Below, one piece after another: positions 330-36,166 of a stretch of DNA of 44,354 nt; the stretch's first letter is position 1, and the number at the start of each line of letters is the position of its first letter. The DNA is taken from the sequence record OZ035776.1. One strand, written 5' to 3'. Source of the DNA: Vectrevirus LF31P3. Position numbers and translations under genes: made by a program. The notes under the pieces were generated by a model, which was not told where the DNA came from, did not search any database, and worked only from the letters and a program-made list of their open reading frames with translations.

Positions 330-2227
330 TGGCTAAGGCAAGAGAATCACAAGCGGAGGCTCTTGCCAGATGGGAGATGCTACAGGAGTTACAGCAGACC
401 TTTCCTTACACAGCGGAAGGTTTGCTTCTCTTTGCAGATACAGTTATTCATAACTTAATTGCAGGCAACCCTCATCTGATTCGTATGCAGGCGGATATCT
501 TGAAGTTCCTATTTTACGGACACAAGTACCGCCTCATCGAAGCGCCTCGTGGTATCGCTAAGACAACACTATCAGCAATCTATACGGTATTCCGTATTAT
601 TCATGAACCGCATAAGCGTATCATGGTTGTGTCCCAAAACGCCAAGCGAGCAGAGGAAATCGCAGGTTGGGTAGTTAAAATCTTCCGTGGCTTAGACTTT
701 CTTGAGTTTATGCTGCCGGATATCTACGCTGGGGACCGTGCATCCGTTAAGGCGTTTGAGATTCATTACACCCTACGTGGCAGTGATAAGTCTCCTTCTG
801 TATCATGTTACTCAATCGAAGCAGGTATGCAGGGTGCTCGTGCTGATATTATTCTAGCGGATGACGTAGAGTCGATGCAGAATGCTCGTACGGCAGCGGG
901 CCGTGCCTTGCTTGAGGAACTGACTAAGGAGTTTGAATCTATCAACCAGTTTGGGGATATCATTTACCTTGGTACACCTCAGAACGTAAACTCTATCTAC
1001 AACAACCTACCTGCTCGTGGTTACTCTGTTCGTATCTGGACTGCGCGTTACCCTTCAGTAGAGCAAGAGCAATGTTATGGCGACTTCCTTGCACCTATGA
1101 TTGTTCAAGATATGAAGGACAACCCAGCACTTCGCTCAGGGTACGGGTTGGATGGTAATAGTGGTGCACCTTGTGCCCCTGAAATGTATGATGATGAAGT
1201 CCTGATTGAGAAGGAAATCTCTCAGGGTGCTGCTAAGTTCCAGCTTCAGTTCATGCTTAACACTCGCATGATGGATGCTGACAGATACCCATTACGCCTG
1301 AACAATCTAATCTTCACCTCGTTTGGTACAGAGGAAGTCCCTGTGATGCCTACGTGGAGTAATGATTCCATAAACATCATTGGTGATGCACCTAAGTATG
1401 GTAACAAGCCTACGGATTTCATGTACAGACCTGTAGCTCGCCCATACGAATGGGGTGCTGTCTCCCGCAAGATTATGTATATTGACCCTGCGGGTGGTGG
1501 TAAGAACGGAGATGAGACGGGTGTAGCCATCGTATTCCTGCACGGCACATTCATTTATGTGTATCAGTGCTTTGGTGTACCTGGCGGATACCGAGAGTCG
1601 TCCCTGAATCGCATTGTGCAGGCCGCAAAGCAGGCGGGTGTTAAAGAGGTATTCATTGAGAAGAACTTTGGTCATGGCGCGTTTGAGGCGGTAATTAAGC
1701 CGTACTTTGAACGAGAGTGGCCTGTAACTCTGGAAGAGGATTACGCCACCGGACAGAAAGAGTTGCGTATCATTGAGACGCTGGAGCCGCTCATGGCAGC
1801 CCATAGGCTTATCTTCAATGCAGAGATGGTGAAGTCAGACTTTGAGTCGGTACAGCACTATCCGCTTGAACTACGCATGTCCTACAGTCTTTTCAATCAA
1901 ATGTCGAACATAACGATTGAGAAGAACAGCCTCCGGCATGATGACCGCCTAGACGCCCTGTATGGCGCTATACGGCAATTAACTTCTCAGATAGACTATG
2001 ACGAGGTTACACGGATTAATCGCCTCAGAGCGCAGGAGATGCGCGATTACATCCATGCTATGAACACACCTCATCTACGCAGGGCAATGCTATATGGAGA
2101 TTACGGTACTGAGAGAAGAGTGACCAACACTTCCGTAGCGATGCAGCAGCGAGTTTACGGGCAGAACTACCGAAATAAATCGGCAAGCAGAAATACACTT
2201 TCTGCAAGAATTTCAAGGACTTATTAA
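329..2227 (+). CDS. terminase large subunit (T7 gp19-like)
   Basis: About 630 aa; Walker A-like PRGIAKTT; ATG at 329 preceded by aaggagg (the ORF track begins 3 nt earlier at TTG 326); typical position and size. Confidence 0.9.
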   Translation: MAKARESQAEALARWEMLQELQQTFPYTAEGLLLFADTVIHNLIAGNPHLIRMQADILKFLFYGHKYRLIEAPRGIAKTTLSAIYTVFRIIHEPHKRIMVVSQNAKRAEEIAGWVVKIFRGLDFLEFMLPDIYAGDRASVKAFEIHYTLRGSDKSPSVSCYSIEAGMQGARADIILADDVESMQNARTAAGRALLEELTKEFESINQFGDIIYLGTPQNVNSIYNNLPARGYSVRIWTARYPSVEQEQCYGDFLAPMIVQDMKDNPALRSGYGLDGNSGAPCAPEMYDDEVLIEKEISQGAAKFQLQFMLNTRMMDADRYPLRLNNLIFTSFGTEEVPVMPTWSNDSINIIGDAPKYGNKPTDFMYRPVARPYEWGAVSRKIMYIDPAGGGKNGDETGVAIVFLHGTFIYVYQCFGVPGGYRESSLNRIVQAAKQAGVKEVFIEKNFGHGAFEAVIKPYFEREWPVTLEEDYATGQKELRIIETLEPLMAAHRLIFNAEMVKSDFESVQHYPLELRMSYSLFNQMSNITIEKNSLRHDDRLDALYGAIRQLTSQIDYDEVTRINRLRAQEMRDYIHAMNTPHLRRAMLYGDYGTERRVTNTSVAMQQRVYGQNYRNKSASRNTLSARISRTY

Positions 2228-2248
2228 TTACTGGACACTATAGAAGGG
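2226..2248 (+). promoter_or_regulatory. phage RNAP promoter (aattactggacactatagaaggg), +1 G at 2243
   Basis: Match to the recurring 23-bp motif with SP6-type core GACACTATAGAAG; directly after terminase stop (T7 phiOR-like position). Confidence 0.75.
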
Positions 2249-2383
2249 AGGCCCAGATAATAAGATAAATAATAGGTAATATATAGGTTAACCTAGGTTA
2301 TATAGGTATGCCTTAGTATGGGTGTACTCCTGTACACCCTATTCCTTACTACCTTACTATATTTACATAATAGGAGAGAGACA

Positions 2384-2973: not shown

Positions 2974-3318
2974 ATGCTTAATAAATACTTCAAGCGTAAA
3001 GAGTTTGCTTGCCGTTGTGGCTGCGGTATATCCACTGTTGATGCTGAATTACTACAGGTAGTAACAGATGTGCGTGAGCACTTTGGTTCTCCTGTAGTTA
3101 TCACTTCGGGGCATCGCTGTGCTAAGCACAATGCTAATGTAGGAGGAGCTAAGAACTCCATGCATCTTACTGGTAAGGCTGCTGACATTAAGGTACGAGG
3201 CATCTTACCTTCTGATGTACATAAGTATCTTACTGATAAGTACCAAGGCAAATATGGGATTGGTAAGTATAACTCCTTTACTCATATTGATGTACGTGAC
3301 GGGTGTGCACGATGGTAG
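2974..3318 (+). CDS. endolysin, peptidase M15-like (zinc D-Ala-D-Ala carboxypeptidase-type fold)
   Basis: Motif SGHRCxxHNxxVGGAxNSxHLxGxAADI typical of M15/VanY-like cell-wall peptidases; ATG at 2974 (internal Met of the longer track ORF) directly after the upstream stop. Confidence 0.75.
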   Translation: MLNKYFKRKEFACRCGCGISTVDAELLQVVTDVREHFGSPVVITSGHRCAKHNANVGGAKNSMHLTGKAADIKVRGILPSDVHKYLTDKYQGKYGIGKYNSFTHIDVRDGCARW

Positions 3319-3994: not shown

Positions 3995-5887
3995 ATGGCA
4001 AGATTAACTCGCCCTGTTAGTGTATTTAATAGTCTGATGGATATTACTTACCCATGCTCCACTGATGGTGGTAAAGCGGAACTACTACAGGTTATACCCG
4101 GACGTATGTCTGGTGGTGGTATCCTACTTTGGGACGCCAGTATGCCTCAGTCCAATCATAATGGTATTACCATCCTCAGCCCTGAAGCTAAATGGGATGG
4201 TACTCTAGAAGGTTTTAAGGCCTATAGGGAAAGTGGAGGGACTGGCAATGGTTGCTGGGTTCGACCACGCAAAGGTACTGATCTGATGGCATCTTGGGCT
4301 GGTGTTGACACAGACGGGGACTGGATTGCGGATGAGCCACTTATGGCGCTGTGTCAGATTGCACATACACAACGTCGTAATATACGCATAGACTCTGGTG
4401 CTGTCATTCGTTGCGGTTTCACAACTCCGATTTCTCAGCAAGACAAGCACAACATTCTATCTCAAACATCTTTTGTATTACGTGGTTTAAAGAACTTCTC
4501 CATATATGCTGAGCAAGATGCAGAGATAACCACAGACCACCCTGTACATCGTGAGCGTACAGTATTCTTCTTGGACGGTTGCGATAAGGTTACAATTTCT
4601 GGTCTTAAGTTTAATTCTGATTTCAGCGATTATTCTTTCGAACCTAATAGTCCCTATGAGCACCATATCAATGAACACTGGTTAGGTGTAGTTGCAGAGG
4701 CTTGTGGTACTGTTGAGGTTCGCAGATGTAGGTTCAATGCACCTCAGTTTGCTGTAAAGGCCGACTGTTTTAATAGAACAGACGGTAGGTGGAATGACAC
4801 AGTTGCAGTAAAAGATTGTTTCTTCCAGTATGCTACAAACTATTGCTTTTTATCACGTAAGTTACGACATTACATCTTCTCTGATAATGAAGTAAGATTT
4901 AATGGACGTAAGTGGCATACATATGGAGAGGCTTGTGCCCCTACTACCTATACTGAGAATCAGATTATCACTCGTAACCGTTTCATAGATCAGATTGCTG
5001 GTCAAAGCTGTATAACTCCTGGTTCTTATGCTAAGCAAGTACTTATTTCAGATAACTTCTGTCAACGTAGTAATGGTATCTTTGTTGAGATAGGCAGTGC
5101 TAGTAATATTAATATTCTTAACAACGTCTCCAAATCTACAGGTGAACGCATCGTCCACGGAAGTGATAAGTATGCAGGAACTACACACATCCTTCTAGTA
5201 TCTGGGGCAGTTGATGATGAACCTGCTGGTGGGCTAAGTAATATCTTGATTCAAGGTAATAACTTCCAAGGCGGTGGTTATGCTTTACAAGAGTACAATA
5301 CAGGCATTCCTATTCGTCGCGGGTTGGATATTCTTAATAACCACCTTGTAGACTGTATTCCACCAGCCTGTACTAACCAATCCTTTAAGTATATTAGGGT
5401 AGAAGGTAACTACATCCAAGCACCGGATGATTACCCAGATATGACTATTGGAGGTCAACACTCTATTATCAAGGATAATGTCCTTATCGGTGTGCGATTG
5501 AGGGCTAGAGATTTAGGTTATACTGTTGTAGGGTTAAAAGTAATAGGTAATACTTTTACTGCAAATAGTGTAGCATCTAAGTTCCCTGCACTGATAGACT
5601 ACACTGATCTAGAAGATCTTGAAGCTTATGACAACGCAGCAGGTATTCAGGCATCTTATGATAGCTTTATAGTAGCACCTGATAACTGTAATAAAATTAG
5701 CTTTATGAAAGTCGGTATGGTTGAAGGTTTTACACAGACACCAGCAGTGGTTTATGGTAGTAAGTTGCAAGGCCAGAAGGCAGGTGCGATTGTTGGCAAT
5801 AGTGCACCTGGGTCTGTACATGGTTGTGCTGCATTCGTGAGTACTTCTAGTGGTGGTTGGGGTTTTATAAACTACGTTCCCGCATAA
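3995..5887 (+). CDS. tailspike protein 1 (probable polysaccharide depolymerase, beta-helix type)
   Basis: 630 aa after terminase/lysis genes as in SP6-like phages; ATG at 3995 preceded by aggagg; Asn/Gly/Ser-rich repetitive sequence consistent with a parallel beta-helix. No named catalytic motif recognised. Confidence 0.55.
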   Translation: MARLTRPVSVFNSLMDITYPCSTDGGKAELLQVIPGRMSGGGILLWDASMPQSNHNGITILSPEAKWDGTLEGFKAYRESGGTGNGCWVRPRKGTDLMASWAGVDTDGDWIADEPLMALCQIAHTQRRNIRIDSGAVIRCGFTTPISQQDKHNILSQTSFVLRGLKNFSIYAEQDAEITTDHPVHRERTVFFLDGCDKVTISGLKFNSDFSDYSFEPNSPYEHHINEHWLGVVAEACGTVEVRRCRFNAPQFAVKADCFNRTDGRWNDTVAVKDCFFQYATNYCFLSRKLRHYIFSDNEVRFNGRKWHTYGEACAPTTYTENQIITRNRFIDQIAGQSCITPGSYAKQVLISDNFCQRSNGIFVEIGSASNINILNNVSKSTGERIVHGSDKYAGTTHILLVSGAVDDEPAGGLSNILIQGNNFQGGGYALQEYNTGIPIRRGLDILNNHLVDCIPPACTNQSFKYIRVEGNYIQAPDDYPDMTIGGQHSIIKDNVLIGVRLRARDLGYTVVGLKVIGNTFTANSVASKFPALIDYTDLEDLEAYDNAAGIQASYDSFIVAPDNCNKISFMKVGMVEGFTQTPAVVYGSKLQGQKAGAIVGNSAPGSVHGCAAFVSTSSGGWGFINYVPA

Positions 5888-5916: not shown

Positions 5917-5972
5917 CACGTAACTTTTCTTAAAGGTTATCATGGTGGTAGCCTTTCAGAAAAGGAGGTTAC

Positions 5973-8156
5973 ATGCTTCAAAGATTAGGGGCAATGTTTG
6001 TTCGGTACAAAAATAAAGTAGGTAATGCTATCGAGCGTACACTACAAAGTAAATTACAGGATGTAGTAAGTGTAAAGGATTATGGCGCTATTGGTGATGG
6101 AGTATATCGTTCACTTGGTGCTAAATTTACCACGTTAAGTATGGCACAAGTAGTATACCCGCATGCGGAAAGTTTAACTCAATCGCAAGATTGGGCGGCT
6201 ATTCAGGCTGCACTTAATTCTCACTCAAAAGTGTACATTCCAGCAGGTAAGTACATGCTATCTGATACCATTGAGATGCGCGGCGGTCAAACTCTGCAAG
6301 GTGACGGTATTGATTCTTGGGTTGCAGGTTATGCTGGGTTTGTAAAAGATAATCAAGGCACTCACCTCATAATGGTGGGAGAGGGAAATAAGAAGTATAC
6401 ATTAGATCATGTATCTAACTTCGATGTAGAAGGTGGTGTCATAGACAACCCAGCTAAGGGTGACGCTTATACTGCCACTGCACCTTCCCCTAATTACTCA
6501 TTTACTGACTTCACTAATGCTAACGCCTCTGGTGCACAACGTGCTACATTGAAACATTTCAGTGTAGCATTACGTTGCACAGGTCACGGTGGTGTTTATC
6601 TTCGTGACTTCCGTATTGTGCCTAATCACAGAGGGCAAGAAGGTTATAAGGATGAGTTGTCAACTGCATTAGGGGACGCATGGGATGTAGGTATTTGGCT
6701 GGAGAATACATCTGACTCAGTGTTATCTTCTGTGCAAGCAGTAGGTTACTGGCGCATTGCAGGTGTTATGAAGACTTGTATACCACAAGAGGGTTCCTTT
6801 GTTGGTGGAGATCGTGATAGGGTATACAATTGCACATTACAAGGTTATCGTGGCTTCTTAGCACGTTCGCATGATACTTACCAAGTAGAAGAAGTATCAG
6901 GTAACACTGTATCGATTAAGTGGTCTGCATCTCACACTTTCGAACCTTCTGGTAAAGTTCGTATCCAAGGGAAAGACCGTAGTTATACTAGCCTGTCTGT
7001 ATCTGGTGACAAATTAGTTTTCAATGGTATTGACGATGTATCAGGTATTAATACCAATAGCTATGTGAGAGTTTCAGGGTCTTCATTCGGAATGTCTGCT
7101 ACTCAACTAAATAACACATACATCGCTGCATTAAACCATCATGCTCGCTTGCCAGCAACCTCTAACCTTTTAGATAATGGGTTTGTTACTTCGGCAGCTT
7201 GCTATGAAGTTGCAGGTGAACCAATTCGTGCCATAAAATTATCTAACTGTACTGTCATTACTTGGGATGACATCTTAGGTATGACTGGTGGTATTCGGGA
7301 CTTCCAGACGACAGATACTTACTTCGAGTCTCAGCCTTTCCGTACTTCTGTGCAAGGCTTGGCAAGCACCACACAACCTGCTGGTTCTCGCATGATTGCA
7401 CTTCGTGGACGTCAAGGTTCTAAAACTACAGGCTATCAAGCTATCGGTTGTACTTATGGGCCAGGTGTAGACCTAAGCCCTCGTTATGAAAGCGATGTAT
7501 CTCGTTACACAACTTCCGGTGGTATGTTCAATCCAAGAGAAGATTTGAACACAACTAAGCAGTTACCAATGAGGCAAGACGCTACTGAGCTATCTTCTAC
7601 TTCTGACTTATTCCTTACACATGCTGCAGGTGGGAAGGCCTATGTTGGCGCTACCTCTGGTGATGCAACGCTTCAATCTAGAACTGGATCATTGAATATC
7701 CAATCAGGACTTCGTGTACGCATTGGTGGCACTGATGGTAGTGGTTGGTACATTGCTGACAGTGCTAAGTTGACACCTACTGCTGACAATGCAAGGGCTT
7801 GTGGACAGCCTAATGGACGATGGACTGTTGTCTATGCTGTTAATGGTACAATCCAGACTTCTGATGGTAGATTCAAGGAAATCCTTGAGATTGAACAGGC
7901 AGAACTTGATGCTGGTCTTGAATTATCAGCAAACCTAATTAAGTATCGGTGGAATGGGGAAGATAAAATTCACTTTGGTTGCATAGCACAAGAAGTGATG
8001 TTAATACTGGAGAAACATGGCCTAGACCCATTACAATATGATATGGTTCAGTATGATGAGGAGGCAGACATCTTTGGGGTAAACTATGCTGAACTCAACA
8101 GCTTCTGTATTGCAGCATTATCGAGGAAGTTAAATGCCATTAATCAGATCAGTTAA
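5973..8156 (+). CDS. tailspike protein 2 with C-terminal intramolecular-chaperone (peptidase S74-like) domain
   Basis: N-terminal VKDYGAIGDG motif (pectate-lyase/beta-helix tailspike signature); C-terminal SDGRFKE ... GCIAQEV resembles the autoproteolytic chaperone domain of endosialidase-type spikes; aaggagg before ATG. Confidence 0.75.
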   Translation: MLQRLGAMFVRYKNKVGNAIERTLQSKLQDVVSVKDYGAIGDGVYRSLGAKFTTLSMAQVVYPHAESLTQSQDWAAIQAALNSHSKVYIPAGKYMLSDTIEMRGGQTLQGDGIDSWVAGYAGFVKDNQGTHLIMVGEGNKKYTLDHVSNFDVEGGVIDNPAKGDAYTATAPSPNYSFTDFTNANASGAQRATLKHFSVALRCTGHGGVYLRDFRIVPNHRGQEGYKDELSTALGDAWDVGIWLENTSDSVLSSVQAVGYWRIAGVMKTCIPQEGSFVGGDRDRVYNCTLQGYRGFLARSHDTYQVEEVSGNTVSIKWSASHTFEPSGKVRIQGKDRSYTSLSVSGDKLVFNGIDDVSGINTNSYVRVSGSSFGMSATQLNNTYIAALNHHARLPATSNLLDNGFVTSAACYEVAGEPIRAIKLSNCTVITWDDILGMTGGIRDFQTTDTYFESQPFRTSVQGLASTTQPAGSRMIALRGRQGSKTTGYQAIGCTYGPGVDLSPRYESDVSRYTTSGGMFNPREDLNTTKQLPMRQDATELSSTSDLFLTHAAGGKAYVGATSGDATLQSRTGSLNIQSGLRVRIGGTDGSGWYIADSAKLTPTADNARACGQPNGRWTVVYAVNGTIQTSDGRFKEILEIEQAELDAGLELSANLIKYRWNGEDKIHFGCIAQEVMLILEKHGLDPLQYDMVQYDEEADIFGVNYAELNSFCIAALSRKLNAINQIS

Positions 8157-8280: not shown

Positions 8281-9250
8281 TAAGCAGATTAATATCTTAG
8301 TGTACACAAGGGCAGACTTATGCTAGCTCACAGCACACCTATGAGTGCCGCTCTGGAGTCTATGACTTGTTCCCTGACTATCTAGGTTTGCTCTTAGTGT
8401 ATTCCAAAGGAGGTAACATGCAAGAGGAGAATTGGGATGTGTAATGTTGGATATGGAGAAGGTTGAACCTTAGTGTTGTACAAGGATTAACCAAAGTCAA
8501 AATTTTGATATAGGCGTGTGTCAGCTCTCTCGCCCTCGCCCTCGCCGGGTTGCCCCCATATGGGGTCGGTCGGCGGTTGACCTAGGAATTGGGCTGGGCG
8601 GGTCCGTCTTCAACCTGCTGCCGCAGGAAGCTCGACGGGTGGGCGAGGGCTTGCCTTGTACTCGCTTAGTGGTACACAAGGAGAGCGCCTAGGAAGCGCT
8701 AGGGCGCGCCTTAGTATTAGACAAGGTGATTGCCTTAGTTCAACCGCTTAGGGCTTACACGGGCCGTTTTAGGGCCACTCCTGAGCGTTTGACAGGGTGT
8801 GAGGGTGTGGGCTATCTGTTTGTTTCGTCGCTGGCGCTCCTCACTTCGTTTCGCTAGCGCTCCACTCACAAGCCTGACGTGTACCTTAGTTACTACCTTA
8901 TGCTATTACTTGATGGATAGCTTAGGTTAAACTTAGTGGACTACCTTAGTTAAAGCCTTAGTGCTTATCTTAGTAATAGCTTAGTAGTGTACCTTAGTAA
9001 GTCTTAGTGTCTTCTCTTAGTGATTGCACATGCAAGCATGTAAGATGCCATTAGGTCGCGGTCGGTAGACCGCTAAAGAGAGAGAATAGTAATAAGATGC
9101 AGTAGGAGGGACACCAGAAACCTAGCCAACCTAGCCTATCCTAGCTCTGTATCTATTGCTTTTCCTTAGTCTCACATGTTAGACAACCTAGGTTTACCTT
9201 AGTAGTTGTGACATGTATCACATAAATAATCTATCTTAGTGAAACTTAGT
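8280..9250. repeat. terminal-region short-repeat arrays (CTTAGT core, about 20 copies; densest 8880..9030)
   Basis: Repeated (c)cttagt(g/a) units in an ORF-free region between the last late gene and the first early promoter; analogous to repeat arrays near T7-group genome ends. Confidence 0.6.
8526..8650. repeat. GC-rich inverted-repeat element
   Basis: cgccctcgccctcgcc (8531..8546) is mirrored by gggcgagggc (8641..8650) about 100 nt away; internal palindrome ccccatatgggg; markedly more GC-rich than surrounding sequence. Confidence 0.5.
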
Positions 9251-9280: not shown

Positions 9281-9429
9281 AGCAATCACTGAGATGGACC
9301 TAGCAAGTTGTCTCAGGTTATAAGCAGGAGAATTGATGCGTAAGCCATAGCTAGTGGATGCAGTCGCATGAAGGCTTGAGTAAGGGGCCGTTTAATACCT
9401 TCTTCCTCTGGAGACAACGCTTATAACAC

Positions 9430-9772: not shown

Positions 9773-9982
<210 letters not shown>

Positions 9983-9987
9983 AAATA

Positions 9988-10212
9988 ATGTATCAACATG
10001 AGGTATTCTTTGAATCAGCTAGCGAAGCTATTCGCTTCCGTGATGATATGATGCAAGCTGGTGTAGGCGTTGATGTGTATCACTATTTGATAGATTACGA
10101 CACTGAATATCACCGAGTTACCTTAGTATCTGAGTATGACAACCAAGTCGTTACTGAGTATCTAGGCAGTGAAGATTACGATTACGATGAAGTAATCACG
10201 ACAAATCTCTAA
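9988..10212 (+). CDS. small acidic early protein (74 aa, D/E/Y-rich)
   Basis: ATG at 9988; intact copy of the duplicated unit. The track ORF 9790..10212 would prepend a polyproline stretch translated from the C tract. Confidence 0.5.
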   Translation: MYQHEVFFESASEAIRFRDDMMQAGVGVDVYHYLIDYDTEYHRVTLVSEYDNQVVTEYLGSEDYDYDEVITTNL

Positions 10213-12386: not shown

Positions 12387-15014
12387 ATGCAAGACCTACA
12401 CGCTATTCAACTTCAACTTGAAGAAGAAATGTTTAACGGCGGTATCCGTCGCTTTGAAGCGGACCAACAACGCCAGATTGCATCCGGTAATGAATCAGAC
12501 ACGGCATGGAATCGCCGCTTATTGTCCGAGTTAATCGCGCCAATGGCTGAAGGTATTCAGGCATACAAGGAAGAATATGAAGGCAAGCGAGGCCGTGCAC
12601 CACGTGCATTGGCTTTCATTAACTGCGTAGAAAATGAAGTGGCAGCGTATATCACGATGAAGATCGTAATGGATATGCTTAACACTGATGTAACCTTGCA
12701 AGCTATCGCTATGAATGTAGCTGACCGCATTGAGGACCAAGTACGTTTTAGCAAGCTGGAAGGTCACGCCGCCAAATACTTTGAGAAAGTTAAGAAGTCA
12801 CTTAAGGCAAGTAAGACTAAATCATATCGCCATGCGCACAACGTAGCGGTCGTGGCTGAGAAGTCAGTAGCTGACCGTGACGCTGATTTCTCTCGCTGGG
12901 AGGCGTGGCCTAAAGATACCTTGCTACAAATTGGTATGACCTTGCTAGAAATACTGGAAAATAGTGTATTCTTCAATGGTCAGCCTGTCTTTCTTCGCAC
13001 CTTGCGCACTAATGGTGGCAAGCATGGCGTTTACTACTTACAGACTAGCGAACACGTGGGTGAATGGATAACTGCATTTAAAGAGCACGTAGCTCAGCTC
13101 AGTCCTGCCTATGCACCTTGCGTTATTCCTCCGCGTCCGTGGGTTTCTCCGTTTAATGGTGGCTTCCATACTGAGAAAGTAGCAAGCCGTATTCGTCTGG
13201 TAAAAGGCAACCGCGAGCACGTCCGTAAGCTGACCAAAAAGCAAATGCCAGCGGTTTACAAGGCTGTTAACGCCTTACAAGCTACTAAGTGGCAGGTTAA
13301 CAAGGAAGTATTGCAGGTAGTAGAAGATGTTATTCGTCTAGACCTCGGTTATGGTGTACCTTCCTTTAAGCCGCTCATTGACCGCGAGAACAAACCAGCT
13401 AACCCTGTACCTCTTGAGTTCCAACACCTGCGAGGCCGTGAACTGAAAGAGATGCTTACGCCAGAACAGTGGCAAGCCTTCATCAACTGGAAAGGTGAAT
13501 GTACCAAGCTGTATACCGCTGAAACTAAGCGCGGCAGCAAGTCGGCGGCAACCGTTCGCATGGTCGGGCAGGCCCGTAAATACAGCCAGTTTGACGCAAT
13601 ATACTTCGTGTATGCACTGGACAGCCGCTCACGCGTTTATGCGCAATCTAGCACACTCTCACCGCAATCAAATGACTTAGGCAAGGCGTTACTACGCTTT
13701 ACCGAAGGGCAGACCATAAACAGCACTGAGGCGCTTAAGTGGTTTTTGGTGAACGGGGCGAATAACTGGGGTTGGGATAAGAAAACTTTTGACGTGCGTA
13801 CCGCTAACGTGCTGGATGGCGAATTTCAAGACATGTGCCGCGACATTGCAGCCGACCCGCTGACCTTCACTCAATGGGTAAATGCCGACTCCCCTTATGG
13901 CTTCCTTGCATGGTGCTTTGAATATGCGCGTTATCTGGATGCACTGGATGAAGGCACGCAAGACCAATTCATGACGCACCTACCCGTCCATCAAGACGGC
14001 AGTTGCTCTGGTATCCAGCACTATAGCGCGATGTTACGCGATGAAGTAGGTGCGAAAGCAGTAAACCTTAAGCCTTCTGACTCCCCTCAAGATATTTATG
14101 GCGCGGTTGCGCAGGTTGTTATCCAGAAGAATTACGCCTACATGAATGCAGACGATGCAGAGACTTTCACATCTGGAAGCGTCACACTTACAGGTGCAGA
14201 ACTGCGTAGCATGGCTAGTGCGTGGGATATGATAGGAATCACTCGCGGATTGACCAAAAAGCCCGTAATGACACTACCTTATGGCAGCACACGTCTAACC
14301 TGCCGTGAATCAGTGATTGATTATATCGTTGATTTGGAAGAAAAAGAGGCCCAACGAGCTATTGCGGAAGGGCGTACCGCCAATCCTGTACATCCTTTTG
14401 ATAATGACCGTAAGGACAGCCTGACACCTAGCGCAGCTTATAACTATATGACAGCTTTAATCTGGCCTTCTATTTCGGAAGTGGTTAAAGCTCCTATAGT
14501 GGCAATGAAAATGATTCGTCAGCTTGCCCGTTTCGCAGCTAAAAGGAATGAAGGCTTAGAGTATACCTTGCCTACTGGCTTCATCTTGCAACAAAAGATA
14601 ATGGCGACAGATATGCTCCGCGTATCTACTTGCTTGATGGGAGAAATCAAGATGAGTCTACAGATTGAAACGGACGTAGTGGATGAAACGGCTATGATGG
14701 GCGCTGCTGCTCCTAACTTTGTGCATGGTCATGATGCCAGCCACCTTATCTTAACAGTCTGCGACCTTGTTGATAAAGGGATTACATCTATCGCAGTCAT
14801 TCATGATTCTTTCGGTACTCACGCAGGCCGTACAGCCGATCTACGTGATAGTCTAAGGGCAGAAATGGTGAAGATGTATCAAGGCCGTAATGCCCTGCAA
14901 AGCCTGTTAGATGAGCATGAAGAACGCTGGTTAGTAGACACCGGAATCCAAGTGCCAGAGCAAGGAGAGTTTGACCTTAACGAAATCTTAGTATCTGACT
15001 ATTGCTTCGCATAA
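12387..15014 (+). CDS. single-subunit DNA-dependent RNA polymerase (T7/SP6 type)
   Basis: 875 aa; recognisable phage RNAP motifs ([22 protein letters not shown]); N-terminus resembles SP6 RNAP as recalled. Confidence 0.95.
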
Positions 15015-15095: not shown

Positions 15096-15118
15096 TGTGA
15101 GACTTATTTACCGGACAC
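15096..15118 (+). promoter_or_regulatory. phage RNAP promoter (atttaccggacactataggatag), +1 G at 15113
   Basis: CCGG variant of the promoter motif; first of two tandem promoters between RNAP and gene 1.1-like ORF. Confidence 0.7.
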
Positions 15119-15269
15119 TATAGGATAGCCGTCGGAGACGGGAAAGAAAGGGAAGATAAAGGATATAAAGGAAGTAATAGGTATTAAAGGTTATATAGGT
15201 TTACCTAGGAATACCTATTACCTTCTTCCTTCCTCTTATTTCTACTTAGAGGAAGGGCAGACCTAAGTT

Positions 15270-15285
15270 GTCTCACATGTGAGAC
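15270..15285. repeat. perfect 16-bp palindrome GTCTCACATGTGAGAC (copy 2)
   Basis: Exact palindrome immediately upstream of the second tandem promoter. Confidence 0.9.
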
Positions 15286-15290
15286 TTCGT

Positions 15291-15313
15291 ATTTACCGGA
15301 CAGTATAGATAAG
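15291..15313 (+). promoter_or_regulatory. variant phage promoter-like site (atttaccggacaGtatagataag)
   Basis: One mismatch in the conserved core (cagtatag); second tandem promoter. Confidence 0.5.
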
Positions 15314-15338: not shown

Positions 15339-15467
15339 ATGCGCAACTTCGAAAAGATGGCCCGTAAAGCTAACCATTTTGACATGGAAGAAGGGCAGAA
15401 GAAAGGCAAGAAGCTGAATAAACCTGTCCGTGACCGTGCATCTAAACGCGCTGCGTGGGAGTTCTAA
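15339..15467 (+). CDS. T7 gene 1.1-like small basic protein (42 aa)
   Basis: Begins MRNFEKM and has KLNK..RDR..KR pattern like T7 gp1.1 as recalled; ggag before ATG; directly upstream of primase/helicase. Confidence 0.6.
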   Translation: MRNFEKMARKANHFDMEEGQKKGKKLNKPVRDRASKRAAWEF

Positions 15468-21486: not shown

Positions 21487-21747
21487 ATGATTAAATACAC
21501 TGCTTATCAGTTAACTAAAGACCGTAAGATAGGTATTGAGGTTAAGGCTTGGGAGCGAGGTCATATCTCTGGAGTAATAGAGGTGCGTTCCAATGAAGGT
21601 ATGATGATTAGAAGACACTTTAGTTTCGCTAAATCTACTTGTAAGCATTTAACAGAGGAACAATTCTTACATCATATTATTAATAATATTAAAGCTATCC
21701 AACCTTATGCCAAGCAAGTTGTAGGTAATGTCACAGTAGTGCATTGA
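21487..21747 (+). CDS. hypothetical protein (86 aa)
   Basis: taaggaa before ATG; AT-rich. Confidence 0.5.
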   Translation: MIKYTAYQLTKDRKIGIEVKAWERGHISGVIEVRSNEGMMIRRHFSFAKSTCKHLTEEQFLHHIINNIKAIQPYAKQVVGNVTVVH

Positions 21748-21769
21748 TTTACTGGACACTATAGAAGGA
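21747..21769 (+). promoter_or_regulatory. phage RNAP promoter (atttactggacactatagaagga), +1 G at 21764
   Basis: Full motif match. Confidence 0.8.
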
Positions 21770-21832
21770 AGCCTAGCCAATCTAGGTTTATAAGGTAGTA
21801 TAGGTAATTAAGTAAATATAGGAGATATAAAC

Positions 21833-22210
21833 ATGTCTATGGTAACTACTCTGGTATTTGTAGCTCAATACTTTCGTGGTCTGGCTAATAAGTTCAAGTC
21901 CAAGGCTATCAAAGCTATTGAGTCTCGCATCGAGGCAGTACAGGCAGAGCAAGTTAAAGTTGAAGAACATCGTAGTTCTCAAATGATTGACTGCCATAAC
22001 CGCTACTATGAATCTCGTGATGACCTTAATGCACGCCAAGTCAAAGAGGTTGAAGAGATGCTGGCACGTCACCAGCAAGAGCGCGACAGCCTGAAAGCTG
22101 AATTTGAAGAGAACAAGGCATCCATCGCCCTTGTACATCAAGCCGCATCTGACAGCCTGAAGAAAGAGATTGTTATGCTGGAAATTGAGTTAGACAACCT
22201 GACCAAATAA
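21833..22210 (+). CDS. hypothetical coiled-coil protein (125 aa)
   Basis: aggag before ATG. Confidence 0.55.
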   Translation: MSMVTTLVFVAQYFRGLANKFKSKAIKAIESRIEAVQAEQVKVEEHRSSQMIDCHNRYYESRDDLNARQVKEVEEMLARHQQERDSLKAEFEENKASIALVHQAASDSLKKEIVMLEIELDNLTK

Positions 22211-22287: not shown

Positions 22288-23094
22288 ATGGCACGTGGTG
22301 ATTTTGATTTTGGTGCTCAGGTTACTAAAGCTGAAGGTAAGGTTTTTAAGAACCCTGAAGTTGGTGATCATGAAGCAGTAATCTCTGGCATCATTCATGT
22401 GGGTTCCTTCCAAGATATCTTTAAGAAAGGTAATACCACTGAAGTTAAGAAGCCAGCAAACTTTGTTCTTGTTAAGATTGTACTGATGGGTGACGATGAC
22501 AAGAACGAAGATGATTCTCGCATGGAACAGTGGATGGCTGTGCCTCTGAAGTCTGGTGACAAGGCAATCTTGACTAAGTTCCTGAATGCAGTTGACCCTA
22601 AAGAGCTGCTTGGTGGTTTCGATGACTTCATTGGTGAATGCCTGACTGCAACTATGGTTGGCTCTGGCGACAAGAATGATGATGGTACTTTCAAGTATGT
22701 TAACTGGAAAGGCTTTGGCGGTATGCCTGATAAGTTGAAGAAGCTTGTACTGGCTCAGGTAGAAGAGGAAGGTCTGTCTATGACAGGTCATATCACCTTC
22801 GACAAGCTGACCAAAGAAATCCTTGATGACATCCCAGCTAACTTGGTGCGTCAATACTTTCTTAATGAAACACCTCGTGGTAAGAACCTGTCTGTTGCTG
22901 GTTCTCACGTAGAAGCAATCATTAAAGCTGCTCGTGAAGAAGACCCAGAGTGGAAGAAAGCCAAGAAGAAAGATGACGAGGATGCTACTCCAGCTAATCG
23001 TAAATCTCTGGATACTGGTGAGTCTGTTCCACAGGAAGTACCTGAAGCAGAAGATACACCTGCACCGGAGATGGATGAGGACGCAGAATATTAA
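22288..23094 (+). CDS. hypothetical protein with acidic C-terminal tail ending in Tyr; candidate ssDNA-binding protein (T7 gp2.5-like role)
   Basis: 268 aa; taggagac before ATG; C-terminus EMDEDAEY resembles the acidic tail with terminal aromatic of phage SSBs. Functional call is inference. Confidence 0.45.
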   Translation: MARGDFDFGAQVTKAEGKVFKNPEVGDHEAVISGIIHVGSFQDIFKKGNTTEVKKPANFVLVKIVLMGDDDKNEDDSRMEQWMAVPLKSGDKAILTKFLNAVDPKELLGGFDDFIGECLTATMVGSGDKNDDGTFKYVNWKGFGGMPDKLKKLVLAQVEEEGLSMTGHITFDKLTKEILDDIPANLVRQYFLNETPRGKNLSVAGSHVEAIIKAAREEDPEWKKAKKKDDEDATPANRKSLDTGESVPQEVPEAEDTPAPEMDEDAEY

Positions 23095-23426: not shown

Positions 23427-23798
23427 ATGTTCAAGATTGAAACTATCGTAAACCGTGTTGTTAAAGGTGCTGCTCTGGTATCCGTTGAGTCTTTCATTAT
23501 CGTCGATGAAGCTGATCAACTGGTAGCTGGTACTAAGGCTTACGATACCCGTGAAGAAGCTCAGGCTAAGATTGACAGCATGGGTAACTTCGCTGCTGGT
23601 CTGGAGTTCGCTCGTGCTTGCTTCCCTGAGCAGGCTGACAAAGCTCAGATCGGTAAGGCTAACATCGTAGCTGAATATCTGGATTGGGTTGCTGCTGGTA
23701 AGCCAGTGAAAGAAGTTAAATCTACTGAAGAAGCTGAAGCAGTAGAAGACCTAGCTGCACCGGTAGATGTTCCGGTAAGCGAAGAAGAAGAGTTTTAA
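23427..23798 (+). CDS. hypothetical acidic protein (123 aa) ending EEEEF; likely highly expressed
   Basis: aaaggaga before ATG, own promoter and downstream hairpin; codons look like the highly expressed late genes. Confidence 0.65.
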   Translation: MFKIETIVNRVVKGAALVSVESFIIVDEADQLVAGTKAYDTREEAQAKIDSMGNFAAGLEFARACFPEQADKAQIGKANIVAEYLDWVAAGKPVKEVKSTEEAEAVEDLAAPVDVPVSEEEEF

Positions 23799-33764: not shown

Positions 33765-36166
33765 TGGAAGTACAAGGTTCATTAGGTAGACAAATCCAAG
33801 GGATTAGCCAGCAGCCGCCAGCGGTACGCTTGGATGGTCAGTGCACAGCTATGGTTAATATGATACCTGATGTAGTGAATGGTACTCAATCACGCATGGG
33901 TACAACTCATATTGCAAAGATACTTGATGCGGGGACTGATGACATGGCTACTCATCATTATCGCAGAGGTGATGGTGATGAAGAGTATTTCTTCACGTTG
34001 AAGAAAGGACAAGTTCCTGAGATATTTGATAAGTATGGGCGCAAATGTAATGTGACTTCACAAGATGCACCTATGACTTACTTAACTGAAGTAGTCAACC
34101 CAAGGGAAGATGTGCAATTTATGACTATTGCAGATGTAACCTTTATGCTTAATCGAAGAAAGGTAGTTAAAGCTCGTACTGATAAATCACCAAAGGTTGG
34201 AAATAAGGCGATTGTCTTCTGCGCCTATGGCCAATATGGGACTACTTATAAAATTATAATTGATGGCAATGTAGCAGCTACACGTACCACCCCTGACGGT
34301 GGTGAAGCGGGTCAAGTTGTAAATATAAGAACAGAAGACATTACAAACCATCTTTATGATAGTTTACAGCAATGGAGTGGTATTAATGCCTACAACATCC
34401 AGAAAGATGGAACAAGTATCTTTATTGAAAAGAAAGATGGTAGCTCTTTTAATATTACTACAGAAGATGGTGCAAAAGGTAAGGACTTAGTAGCCATAAA
34501 GAACCGTGTAGCCTCTACCGACCTTCTACCCTCCCGTGCACCTGAAGGTTACAAAGTGCAAGTATGGCCTACTGGAAGTAAACCGGAGTCACGTTATTGG
34601 CTGGAAGCAGAACCAAAAGAGGGGAATTTAGTATCATGGCAAGAGACAGTAGCGGCGGATGTTTTACTTGGCTTTGATAAAGGGACCATGCCGTATATTA
34701 TTGAGCGTACAGGTATCATTGATGGTATTGCTCAATTTAAGATTAGGCAGGGTGACTGGGAAGACCGCAAGGTGGGGGATGACCTCACTAACCCTATGCC
34801 GTCTTTCATTGATGAAGAAGTTCCTCAGACAATTGGCGGAATGTTCATGGTGCAGAACCGTTTATGCTTTACAGCAGGTGAAGCTGTCATTGCATCACGC
34901 ACTTCCTACTTCTTTGATTTCTTTCGTTATACGGTTATCTCTGCATTGGCAACTGACCCATTTGATATTTTCTCAGATGCTAGTGAAGTCTACCAGTTAA
35001 AACATGCAGTGACCTTAGATGGCGCTACCGTGTTGTTCTCTGATAAGTCACAATTCATACTGCCAGGAGATAAGCCTTTAGAGAAGTCAAATGCATTGCT
35101 TAAGCCTGTTACAACATTTGAAGTGAACAATAAAGTGAAGCCAGTAGTAACTGGTGAATCGGTAATGTTTGCCACTAATGATGGTTCTTACTCTGGTGTA
35201 CGAGAGTTCTATACAGACTCTTATAGTGACACTAAGAAGGCACAAGCAATCACAAGTCATGTGAATAAACTCATCGAAGGTAACATTACCAACATGGCAG
35301 CAAGCACCAATGTCAACAGGTTACTTGTCACTACCGATAAGTATCGTAACATAATCTACTGCTACGATTGGTTATGGCAAGGAACAGACCGTGTACAATC
35401 AGCATGGCATGTATGGAAGTGGCCTATAGGTACAAAGGTGCGAGGTATGTTTTATTCTGGCGAATTACTTTACCTGCTCCTTGAGAGAGGCAATGGTGTC
35501 TATCTGGAGAAGATGGATATGGGTGATGCATTAACCTATGGTTTAAATGATCGCATCCGAATGGATAGACAGGCAGAGTTAATCTTCCAGCATTTCAAAG
35601 CAGAAGATGAATGGGTATCTGAACCGCTACCTTGGGTTCCTACTAACCCAGAACTTTTAGATTGCATCTTAATCGAGGGTTGGGATTCATATATTGGTGG
35701 TTCTTTCCTATTCAAATACAACCCCGGTGATAACACCTTGTCTACAACCTTTGATATGCATGATGATAGCCACGTAAAAGCGAAGGTTATTGTTGGTCAG
35801 ATTTACCCTCAAGAGTTTGAACCAACACCTGTAGTTATCAGAGATAGGCAAGACCGTGTATCTTATATTGATGTACCTGTTGTGGGATTAGTTCACCTTA
35901 ATCTTGATATGTATCCTGATTTCTCCGTGGAGGTTAAGAATGTGAAGAGTGGTAAAGTACGCAGGGTGCTAGCGTCAAACCGTATAGGTGGTGCTCTCAA
36001 CAATACAGTAGGTTATGTTGAACCAAGAGAAGGTGTCTTCAGATTCCCACTGAGAGCTAAGAGTACGGATGCTGTTTATCGTATTATTGTAGAATCACCT
36101 CACACATTCCAGCTTCGTGATATTGAGTGGGAAGGGAGCTACAATCCAACCAAAAGGAGGGTCTAA
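33764..36166 (+). CDS. tail tubular protein B (gp12-like)
   Basis: About 800 aa; N-terminal GISQQPP block like T7 gp12; TAATG overlap with upstream gene. Confidence 0.85.
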   Translation: MEVQGSLGRQIQGISQQPPAVRLDGQCTAMVNMIPDVVNGTQSRMGTTHIAKILDAGTDDMATHHYRRGDGDEEYFFTLKKGQVPEIFDKYGRKCNVTSQDAPMTYLTEVVNPREDVQFMTIADVTFMLNRRKVVKARTDKSPKVGNKAIVFCAYGQYGTTYKIIIDGNVAATRTTPDGGEAGQVVNIRTEDITNHLYDSLQQWSGINAYNIQKDGTSIFIEKKDGSSFNITTEDGAKGKDLVAIKNRVASTDLLPSRAPEGYKVQVWPTGSKPESRYWLEAEPKEGNLVSWQETVAADVLLGFDKGTMPYIIERTGIIDGIAQFKIRQGDWEDRKVGDDLTNPMPSFIDEEVPQTIGGMFMVQNRLCFTAGEAVIASRTSYFFDFFRYTVISALATDPFDIFSDASEVYQLKHAVTLDGATVLFSDKSQFILPGDKPLEKSNALLKPVTTFEVNNKVKPVVTGESVMFATNDGSYSGVREFYTDSYSDTKKAQAITSHVNKLIEGNITNMAASTNVNRLLVTTDKYRNIIYCYDWLWQGTDRVQSAWHVWKWPIGTKVRGMFYSGELLYLLLERGNGVYLEKMDMGDALTYGLNDRIRMDRQAELIFQHFKAEDEWVSEPLPWVPTNPELLDCILIEGWDSYIGGSFLFKYNPGDNTLSTTFDMHDDSHVKAKVIVGQIYPQEFEPTPVVIRDRQDRVSYIDVPVVGLVHLNLDMYPDFSVEVKNVKSGKVRRVLASNRIGGALNNTVGYVEPREGVFRFPLRAKSTDAVYRIIVESPHTFQLRDIEWEGSYNPTKRRV

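Follow-up and report, generated by a model that had tools for sequence, protein, structure and literature searches.

Phased TAGGT arrays in the leaders of a subset of phage RNA polymerase promoters in a K1-5-like Vectrevirus and its relatives

Sequence record OZ035776.1 of Vectrevirus LF31P3, a window of 44,354 nucleotides (nt) that was analysed over its whole length, is a circularly permuted K1-5-like phage genome (Vectrevirus, Molineuxvirinae, Autographiviridae) with about 97% identity to K1-5. All of its large open reading frames (ORFs) lie on the + strand, and the physical genome ends are located near 8.7-9.3 kb of the window. About 13 promoters for the phage RNA polymerase match the core GGACACTATAG(A/G)A. 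Three of these promoters are followed in their transcribed leaders by arrays of short units with a TAGGT core, which recur every 9-10 nt and are the subject of this analysis. The first array lies behind the promoter that follows the large terminase gene (site 1), the second behind the first of two tandem promoters that follow the RNA polymerase gene (site 2), and the third behind the promoter that precedes the phrog_7450 gene (site 3). A 1.4-kb piece around the arrays is 97-99% identical to K1-5 and to many Vectrevirus records.

The promoter of site 1 (2226..2243, + strand; +1 = 2243) matches the core GGACACTATAGAAG exactly and is a member of a repeat family (D1/D2). Array 1 (2272..2308, + strand) consists of four ATAGGT(A/T) units whose TAGGT pentamers start at 2273, 2284, 2294 and 2303, which gives spacings of 11, 10 and 9 nt and positions from +31 to +65, and it includes a palindrome of 12 base pairs (bp), TAACCTAGGTTA, at 2288-2299. 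At site 2 the RNA polymerase gene (12387-15014, + strand) is followed by a promoter identified by its match to the core (15106..15123, + strand; +1 = 15123) and by array 2 (15146..15200, + strand), with six phased AGG units at about 15147, 15158, 15167, 15178, 15188 and 15196. The last three of these are TAGGT (15178), AAGGT (15188) and TAGGT (15196), and ahead of them stand AGGG near 15147 and phased AAGGA at 15158 and 15167. The promoter of site 3 (21747..21764, + strand; +1 = 21764) was likewise identified by its core. Array 3 (21772..21809, + strand) begins with CCTAGCC and continues with TAGGT at 21783, AAGGT at 21792 and TAGGT at 21801; a Shine-Dalgarno sequence and the ATG at 21833 come next. 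The arrays start between +20 and +31 (+24 at site 2 if the phased AGG units ahead of TAGGT are counted).

An earlier note on this DNA had described clusters of TAGGT and AAGGT pentamers at about 9-bp spacing downstream of promoters at 2243, 15113 and 21764. The clusters are present at all three sites with units 9-10 nt apart, and the first and third promoters and the coordinates of the first and third clusters stand as they were given. The second promoter has its +1 at 15123 instead, and the second cluster had been placed (15169..15191) about 9 nt too far to the left. The longer similarity reported among the leaders is borne out as well, with the 12-mer GGTTATATAGGT common to sites 1 and 2 (exact at 2296 and 15189) and ATAGGTAAT common to sites 1 and 3 (exact at 2272 and 21800).

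The arrays are non-random, phased, conserved and confined to a special subset of promoters. Clusters were defined as at least three copies of [ACT]AGGT with successive starts 7-13 nt apart, a rule set before the related phages were examined. On the + strand of the whole 44-kb genome the rule returns exactly sites 1, 2 and 3; the - strand yields the inverted arm of site 2 (15203-15224) and nothing else. Shuffled genomes, a control that the earlier note had called for, contained on average 0.06 such clusters and never more than one, against the three observed on the + strand. Four TAGGT pentamers inside 45 nt were seen in 0 of 300 dinucleotide-preserving shuffles, and when the same number of motifs was placed at random the probability of at least three clusters was 0.015. 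Sites 2 and 3 are weak statistically when taken alone, and their strength derives from conservation.

The consensus of 101 units from 20 arrays is (A/C)TAGGTA(A/G)T, in which the AGG core is imposed by the search pattern itself and carries a strongly preferred T on either flank. Neighbouring units are 9 nt apart in 34 cases and 10 nt apart in 27, with a mean of 9.4 nt, and spacings at multiples of 9-10 nt correspond to places with a decayed unit. The first 75 nt of leaders with an array are 63-68% A+T and the array cores about 75%, compared with 55% for the genome, and both the G-over-C skew (+0.4 to +0.7) and the purine content of these leaders are the highest among all leaders. Coding potential was considered and rejected: TAG stops fall in shifting frames and a conserved mini-ORF is absent.

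Nine genomes of the same subfamily were compared (SP6, K1E, CrRp3, Klebsiella K1-ULIP33, K44PH129C1, HY, Proteus Pm5460, PM116 and Erwinia S2), with the more distant Erwinia phage VL73 as a tenth, and T7 was examined as well. Every Molineuxvirinae genome compared carries arrays of three to eight units behind the promoters that follow the RNA polymerase gene and the large terminase gene, and the third array is found upstream of the phrog_7450 gene in the lineages that possess this gene, with four units in K1E, CrRp3 and ULIP33. The comparison with related phages, which had also been proposed as a check, thus places arrays at orthologous promoters in 10 genomes of at least five genera. The result that the earlier note had named as refuting, pentamers distributed as in shuffled controls and orthologous promoters without conservation, is clearly not the one obtained. 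No array was found behind the remaining phage promoters in any genome compared, so that arrays accompany 3 of about 13 promoters in the window, 2 of 10 in S2 and 2 of 9 in VL73. In alignments of orthologous leaders the TAGG or TAGGTA columns are invariant, and the spacers, hairpins and pyrimidine tracts are variable. The last TAGGTA unit of array 1 is invariant in 10 genomes, with ATAGG and CCTAGG nearly so, and the AGG columns of array 2 are invariant in nine. The specificity region of the promoters changes among genera (CTGGACAC, AGGTGACAC, AGACCAC, ACCACCC) and the array unit stays. One candidate explanation, that the arrays are promoter decoys, arises since TAGGT occurs within the SP6 promoter (ATTTAGGTGACAC); it was rejected because the arrays persist across genera with differing promoters, K1-5 and the Proteus and Erwinia phages among them.

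In VL73, which has an RNA polymerase of 43% identity, six or seven units form an array behind each of two promoters; one of these precedes the primase-helicase region and the other follows the terminase gene. The unit is AGTAAGC or AGAAGC, and the two promoter-array-hairpin loci (4347-4420 and 36034-36105) occupy the same two genome positions as in the SP6 group. Since Erwinia phage S2 keeps AGGT and VL73 has AGTAAGC, the unit appears to track the phage lineage and not the host genus, an argument drawn from a single lineage. Genes for HNH homing endonucleases lie directly 3' of the site-2 array, before the gene 1.1/primase region, in the unrelated lineages S2 (7019-7471) and PM116 (6674-7087). 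A scan of IMG/VR with the RNA polymerase protein recovered close relatives only. A fixed-pattern scan of the same database returned mostly unrelated contigs with long TGTAGGT(C/T) arrays at 9-10 nt spacing beside AT-rich stretches (L040, L063, L092, L097, L105, L041, L090, L111 and others); these are iteron-like arrays of the classical type from other groups of phages, with no relation to the TAGGT leaders.

Two of the three sites occupy the positions of known T7 origins. Site 2 is the counterpart of the T7 spacer between gene 1 and gene 1.1, with the RNA polymerase gene followed by the promoters at 15123 and 15308 and a gene matching PF08200. The second tandem promoter (15291..15308, + strand; +1 = 15308), found by its core match, lacks an array. 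The basic protein of 42 amino acids encoded behind it (15339..15467, + strand) is a homologue of gene 1.1 (Pfam PF08200, E = 8e-14), and because of this homologue site 2 matches the position of the T7 primary origin. On the T7 map the spacer contains phi1.1A, the R1.1 hairpin, phi1.1B and an AT-rich region. T7 has its primary origins at the promoters phi1.1A and phi1.1B and secondary ones at phiOR and phi6.5 (PMC8373140). In T7 phiOR comes after gene 19, and site 1 likewise comes after the terminase gene; the earlier note's assignment of the first cluster to the phiOR position holds. The positional analogy with T7 is stronger than in that note, with site 2 and not site 1 as the counterpart of the primary origin. 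All three sites have a promoter immediately upstream (2243, 15123 and 21764) and an AT-rich region directly 3' of it, as T7-type origins do, and site 2 alone combines these with the gene 1/gene 1.1 location and tandem promoters.

The T7 group also carries phased arrays. In T7 itself three C(C/T)T(A/T)AAG units are present at 5929-5951, behind phi1.1B and inside the AT-rich origin region, and a scan of T7 with C[CT]T[AT]AAG finds this as the only cluster besides the terminal SRL array. Behind the promoter that follows gene 1, K11 (about 3170-3210) and Kvp1 (about 3105-3140) carry ACTTAAAG or ACTTTAAG three times at intervals of about 12 nt, and the units of all three phages can be summarised as ACTT(T/A)AAG. 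The same word is a leader motif before many T7 late genes (TTTAACTTTAAG). The T7 primary origin and site 2 thus have in common the genome position, the tandem promoters, an AT-rich stretch with phased short repeats and a hairpin between the promoters. They differ in that the array lies behind the second promoter in T7 but behind the first, between both, in K1-5, and in that the unit is CTTAAG, present three times at 10-13 nt, in T7 and TAGGTA, present six times at 9-10 nt, here. Origin activity has been shown for T7 and is a candidate property of site 2. Site 1 resembles phiOR in having a promoter directly after the large terminase gene and then an AT-rich non-coding leader. The phiOR leader, however, is without a TAGGT-type array, and phiOR adjoins the right genome end, whereas about 6.7 kb of lysis and tailspike genes follow site 1. 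Because VL73 and the T7 group carry other units at like positions, the array architecture is older than the TAGGT word.

The leaders of sites 1 and 2 share a common design in which the promoter is followed by a purine-rich start (GAAGGAAGGCC...), the array, a stable hairpin and a pyrimidine-rich tract that contains one or two inverted, degenerate units. The next gene then begins at site 1, and a palindrome and the second promoter follow at site 2. At site 1 the 3' edge of the array is formed by GCCTTAGT (2309..2316, + strand), which is kept in K1-5, K1E, CrRp3, SP6, K44 and HY and has the sequence of the terminal-array unit CCTTAGT. It is followed by the G+C-rich hairpin GGGTGTAC-TCCT-GTACACCC (2320..2339, + strand), which together with its U/C-rich tail scores as terminator-like, and by the pyrimidine-rich tract CCTTACTACCTTAC (2340..2368, + strand), in which inverted, degenerate unit copies can be read. 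In some minimum-free-energy folds this tract pairs with an upstream purine-rich arm. At site 2 folding predicts a 5'-proximal hairpin, CCGTC-GGA-GACGG (15129..15141, + strand), ahead of the array. The inverted units CCTAGGAATACCTATTACCTTCTTCC (15203..15228, - strand), which were found both by folding and by the cluster rule, pair with array 2 as the 3' arm of a 17-bp hairpin. A second hairpin, CCTTCCTCT..AGAGGAAGG (15228..15256, + strand), is also predicted by folding, and the terminator-like palindrome GTCTCACATGTGAGAC (15270..15285, + strand) lies directly before the second promoter. The first site-2 promoter transcribes only the array and hairpins ahead of this palindrome and the second promoter, and because these two come next, array 2 and its hairpins appear to form a non-coding unit. 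Array 3 has no inverted arm.

The perfect palindrome GTCTCACATGTGAGAC recurs on the + strand, itself or as close variants of 16-22 nt, in at least eight copies (9165, 15088, 15270, 16066, 17477, 18620, 23320 and 39874). The copies often lie 4-10 nt 5' of a phage promoter or just past a gene, and they score as terminator-like. Lineage versions occur in SP6 (GTCTAACGTGTTGGAC), in the Klebsiella and Proteus phages (GTCCAACATGTTGGAC), in S2 and in VL73. The palindrome could terminate transcription by the phage polymerase or serve as the operator of a dimeric protein. Behind array 1 lie two paralogous genes of about 95 codons (phrog_2725; 2384-2662 and 2681-2971) that have an INxxxLSGKQKGA motif in common, and longer versions are found in S2 and VL73. 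Neither has a Pfam match, and the label 'acetyl-CoA acetyltransferase' that many records give them looks spurious.

As judged from sequence, position and conservation, the arrays are most likely the conserved cis-acting core of a special class of leaders behind phage RNA polymerase promoters. The reading preferred over its rivals, though held at somewhat less than an even chance, takes them as the SP6/K1-5-group counterpart of the AT-rich component in transcription-primed origins of the T7 type and assigns the primary origin to site 2. This origin reading is favoured because of the positional homology to the T7 gene 1/gene 1.1 spacer and phiOR, the limitation of the arrays to few promoters, the parallel phased arrays of T7-group phages, the apparent non-coding unit transcribed at site 2, the AT-rich and G-over-C-skewed composition of the leaders, and the conservation of the unit as sequence, with invariant columns and no covariation.

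We infer every functional step of the corresponding mechanism from these features. The phage polymerase would start at the promoter and transcribe 20-80 nt of AT-rich DNA with about 67-75% A+T. The non-template strand there is G-over-C skewed and made up of 9-10-nt units (A/C)TAGGTA(A/G)T, and the region would melt easily. The short transcript would be stopped or released at the hairpin and pyrimidine tract and would then serve as a primer, and the displaced TAGGT strand would be the loading zone for the primase-helicase and a gp2.5-like single-strand-binding protein. Site 2 (15106-15308) would be the primary origin, and sites 1 and 3 would be secondary origins that possibly also act in downstream gene expression. 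The conserved sequence of the unit would imply sequence-specific recognition by some component. Two ORFs annotated as hypothetical (22288-23094, ending in ..EMDEDAEY, and 23427-23798, ending in ..SEEEEF) encode proteins with acidic C-terminal tails and a terminal aromatic residue like those of T7 gp2.5, and the acidic-tail protein of 268 amino acids is probably a single-strand-binding protein. The SP6 primase reportedly recognises 5'-GCA-3'. This trinucleotide is absent from the + strand of the arrays and occurs once on the - strand, at 2309-2311; the primase of K1-5 may have another specificity. Promotion of R-loops by G-rich RNA was rejected as a general explanation, as the VL73 arrays are without a high G-over-C skew (+0.14 to +0.21).

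All genomes, T7 with its known origin among them, have a lower GC skew on the left of site 2 than on its right; this step is weak support for an origin at site 2 and is confounded by the boundary between early and middle genes. Several points weigh against an origin function. The literature search found no replication data for these SP6-group phages. In vitro, T7 origins work without a sequence-specific factor, and an invariant TAGGTA would be more than AT-richness by itself can account for. The T7, K11 and Kvp1 arrays also copy the late-gene leader motif and so could be translational elements instead of origin elements. Array 3 sits directly on the ribosome-binding region and is without a T7 counterpart. 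The compensated hairpins that flank arrays 1 and 2 suggest selection on the RNA. Finally, the mean spacing of 9.4 nt falls short of the 10.5-bp helical repeat of B-DNA.

The last point also bears on the earlier note, which had read the spacing as a helical repeat that suggests iteron-like protein-binding sites or secondary origins; the helical-repeat spacing and the likeness to iterons find no support. Iterons such as those of the lambda origin, RK2 and pSC101 do resemble the arrays in having at least three direct repeats in regular phase, an adjoining AT-rich region and sometimes inverted copies. Their units, however, are about 17-22 bp long, are spaced by whole helical turns and accompany an adjacent gene for a Rep- or O-type initiator, whereas the units here measure 9-10 nt with a 9.4-nt period. 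No Rep/O-like initiator or other DNA-binding family was detected in the flanking and unassigned genes scanned, which are part of the phage's genes. On unit length, helical phasing and adjacent initiator gene alike, the TAGGT arrays fall outside the iteron class.

The main alternative is that the leaders act as RNA, with the array, the inverted pyrimidine arm and the flanking hairpins folding into a long irregular hairpin that is processed by host RNase III or that tunes stability, termination or translation. This reading is doubtful but still credible. All arrays lie on the sense strand within transcripts, and the hairpin of site 2 has the place of the T7 RNase III site R1.1, between phi1.1A and phi1.1B. 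Host RNase III processes R1.1, and the annotation of gh-1 lists putative RNase III sites in these spacers. The T7 RNase III sites, which have about two turns of double-stranded RNA, resemble site 2 in being irregular hairpins in promoter-proximal intergenic leaders, and the stems of R1.1 and R1.3 also use AAGGTC/GGCCTT; they differ in being single hairpins of about 50 nt without phased direct repeats. Array 2 and its inverted arm form a stem of at least 17 bp in all six genera tested (z = -1.9 to -4.2), and the 3' arm always bears an inverted copy of the unit, though in shifted registers. The third pair of the 5' hairpin of site 2 is G-C in seven genomes, A-U in CrRp3 and C-G in HY. The array-1 hairpin changes from GGGTGTAC..GTACACCC in the K1-5 group to GGGAGGTA..TACCTCCC in SP6, with four pairs altered on both sides, and reads GGGTAC..GTACCC in the Klebsiella and Proteus phages and ATCCCCTC..GAGGGGAT in S2, so that its stem is retained through compensatory changes. 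Weak, sub-threshold hits to microRNA-precursor models in the leaders mirror the hairpin shape.

The RNA alternative does not extend evenly to the three sites or to the units themselves. As a whole, site 1 folds no better than shuffled sequences in four of seven genomes (K1-5, ULIP33, SP6 and K1E; z = +0.2 to -0.9), and site 3 has neither a partner arm nor a significant fold (z = -0.1 to -2.2). Most TAGGT units fall in loops or unpaired stretches. RNAalifold found only invariant pairs over the array, with a covariation term that was not favourable, and at the gathering score no Rfam 15 family matched anywhere in the window, the leaders giving chance-level hits only. Moreover, a stem has no need of four to eight phased copies of an invariant pentamer. 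Because the unit columns are invariant without covariation and the hairpins are compensated, the units are conserved as sequence and the flanking hairpins as structure. An origin and an RNA leader would not be mutually exclusive, given that the T7 origin and R1.1 occupy one spacer.

Conservation at the level of sequence, together with regular phasing, would also be expected of a binding array for a sequence-specific phage or host protein that acts on DNA or nascent RNA and regulates the three transcription units as a roadblock, timing switch or translational repressor. The arrays always lie 20-80 nt past +1, where a bound protein would block a T7-type polymerase, and arrays 1 and 2 each contain one head-to-head pair, ACCTAGGT. 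VL73 has the same architecture at the same positions with another unit, AGTAAGC, and S2 keeps AGGT, as would be the case if the unit followed the phage lineage. Such a protein array is nevertheless unlikely. The neighbouring and unassigned early and middle genes are without matches to DNA- or RNA-binding families or to solved relatives, the VL73 argument concerns one lineage, and the downstream gene sets (replication genes, a coiled-coil protein, and late and lysis genes) have no obvious shared timing.

A broader idea is that origin-type promoters in the T7 supergroup are labelled by a phased array particular to each lineage, which a phage-encoded protein or the replisome itself reads. The words would be TAGGTA in the SP6/K1-5 group, AGTAAGC in VL73 and ACTT(T/A)AAG in the T7 group, and the target would be the displaced strand or the nascent RNA. 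We consider both the general scheme and this assignment of words and targets rather improbable. Phages of the T7 supergroup are not known to use a sequence-specific initiator for replication.

It is very unlikely that the leaders carry internal copies of the short-repeat arrays that adjoin the terminal repeat, with a single factor, for example the small terminase subunit or another maturation factor, reading both kinds. The terminal-repeat region is flanked in the window, at 8700-9250, by about 15 copies of CCTTAGT or CTTAGT, many of them 12 nt apart, and by three copies of CCTAGC at 9121-9141. These repeats are the counterparts of the T7 SRL/SRR arrays and are found in SP6, K1E, ULIP33, K44, Pm5460 and PM116. 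Like the leader arrays, they consist of phased copies of a short lineage-specific word. In K1-5 the terminal unit reads ACTAAGGTA on the - strand and repeats every 12 nt, and it partly overlaps the leader unit, in AAGGTA. In addition, GCCTTAGT closes array 1, and leader-derived 6-mers are enriched at the genome ends of K44, Pm5460, S2 and VL73 (p from 3e-4 to 6e-18). Against these observations, SP6 shows no such enrichment (p = 0.7) and the window a marginal one (p = 0.03), and AGGTA-type words are also enriched at the ends of VL73 and T7, so the enrichment is not lineage-specific. In the reverse test the end-defining 6-mers ACTAAG and CCTTAG gave no internal clusters in 11 of 11 genomes. The terminal arrays also differ in period (12 nt, compared with 9-10 nt in the leaders), in strand, which is the opposite one, and in their defining word, CTAAG. 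The terminal-repeat region further contains ATCTGTT at 8814-8820 (context GGGCTATCTGTTTGTTTCG), which is kept in SP6 and in the Klebsiella and Proteus phages and which we take to match the class II pause/termination signal of the T7 concatemer junction. In the early region, a 113-nt direct repeat with 84% identity is present at 9773-9885 and 9983-10095, and CCGCTCTTTAACAAT occurs three times, at 9429, 10281 and 10493.

That the arrays are tandem repeats made by slippage, without a function of their own and persisting by descent in leaders conserved for other reasons, would fit a unit as long as the period (a degenerate 9-10-nt tandem repeat) and a unit number ranging from three to eight, but it is highly improbable, as the arrays are kept at orthologous sites despite changes in flanks, hairpins and promoters alike, the TAGG core stays invariant between variable spacers, and the same architecture appears with different units in VL73 and the T7 group. 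Other candidates were rejected or set aside. Some units contain AGGA, but the invariant units read GGU, and CsrA requires a GGA core, which speaks against a CsrA sponge. Resemblances to sites for host response regulators, NarL, Fis, IHF and DnaA gave no consistent match, and complementarity to 16S rRNA (Shine-Dalgarno-like AGGU and the epsilon region) amounts to matches of 4-8 nt, as expected by chance for a 1.5-kb RNA.

The literature search found no paper on these repeats or on replication origins of the SP6 group, although a passing mention in the two original genome papers is possible. SP6 and K1-5 serve as models and in phage therapy, and the polymerase and promoter of SP6 are in standard use in laboratories. 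The start of replication in SP6-group phages is unmapped as far as this search shows, and the arrays offer three precise, conserved and easily mutated candidate sites. If the arrays are RNA elements, they would constitute a conserved leader module that controls replication and lysis genes. Should the rather improbable array code read by a phage protein or the replisome prove true, origins would be recognised through a new kind of code that evolves along with the phage. If the arrays are origin elements, the T7 paradigm of a promoter and AT-rich DNA would gain a sequence-specific and lineage-specific component, and orthogonal replicons based on the SP6 family could be designed.

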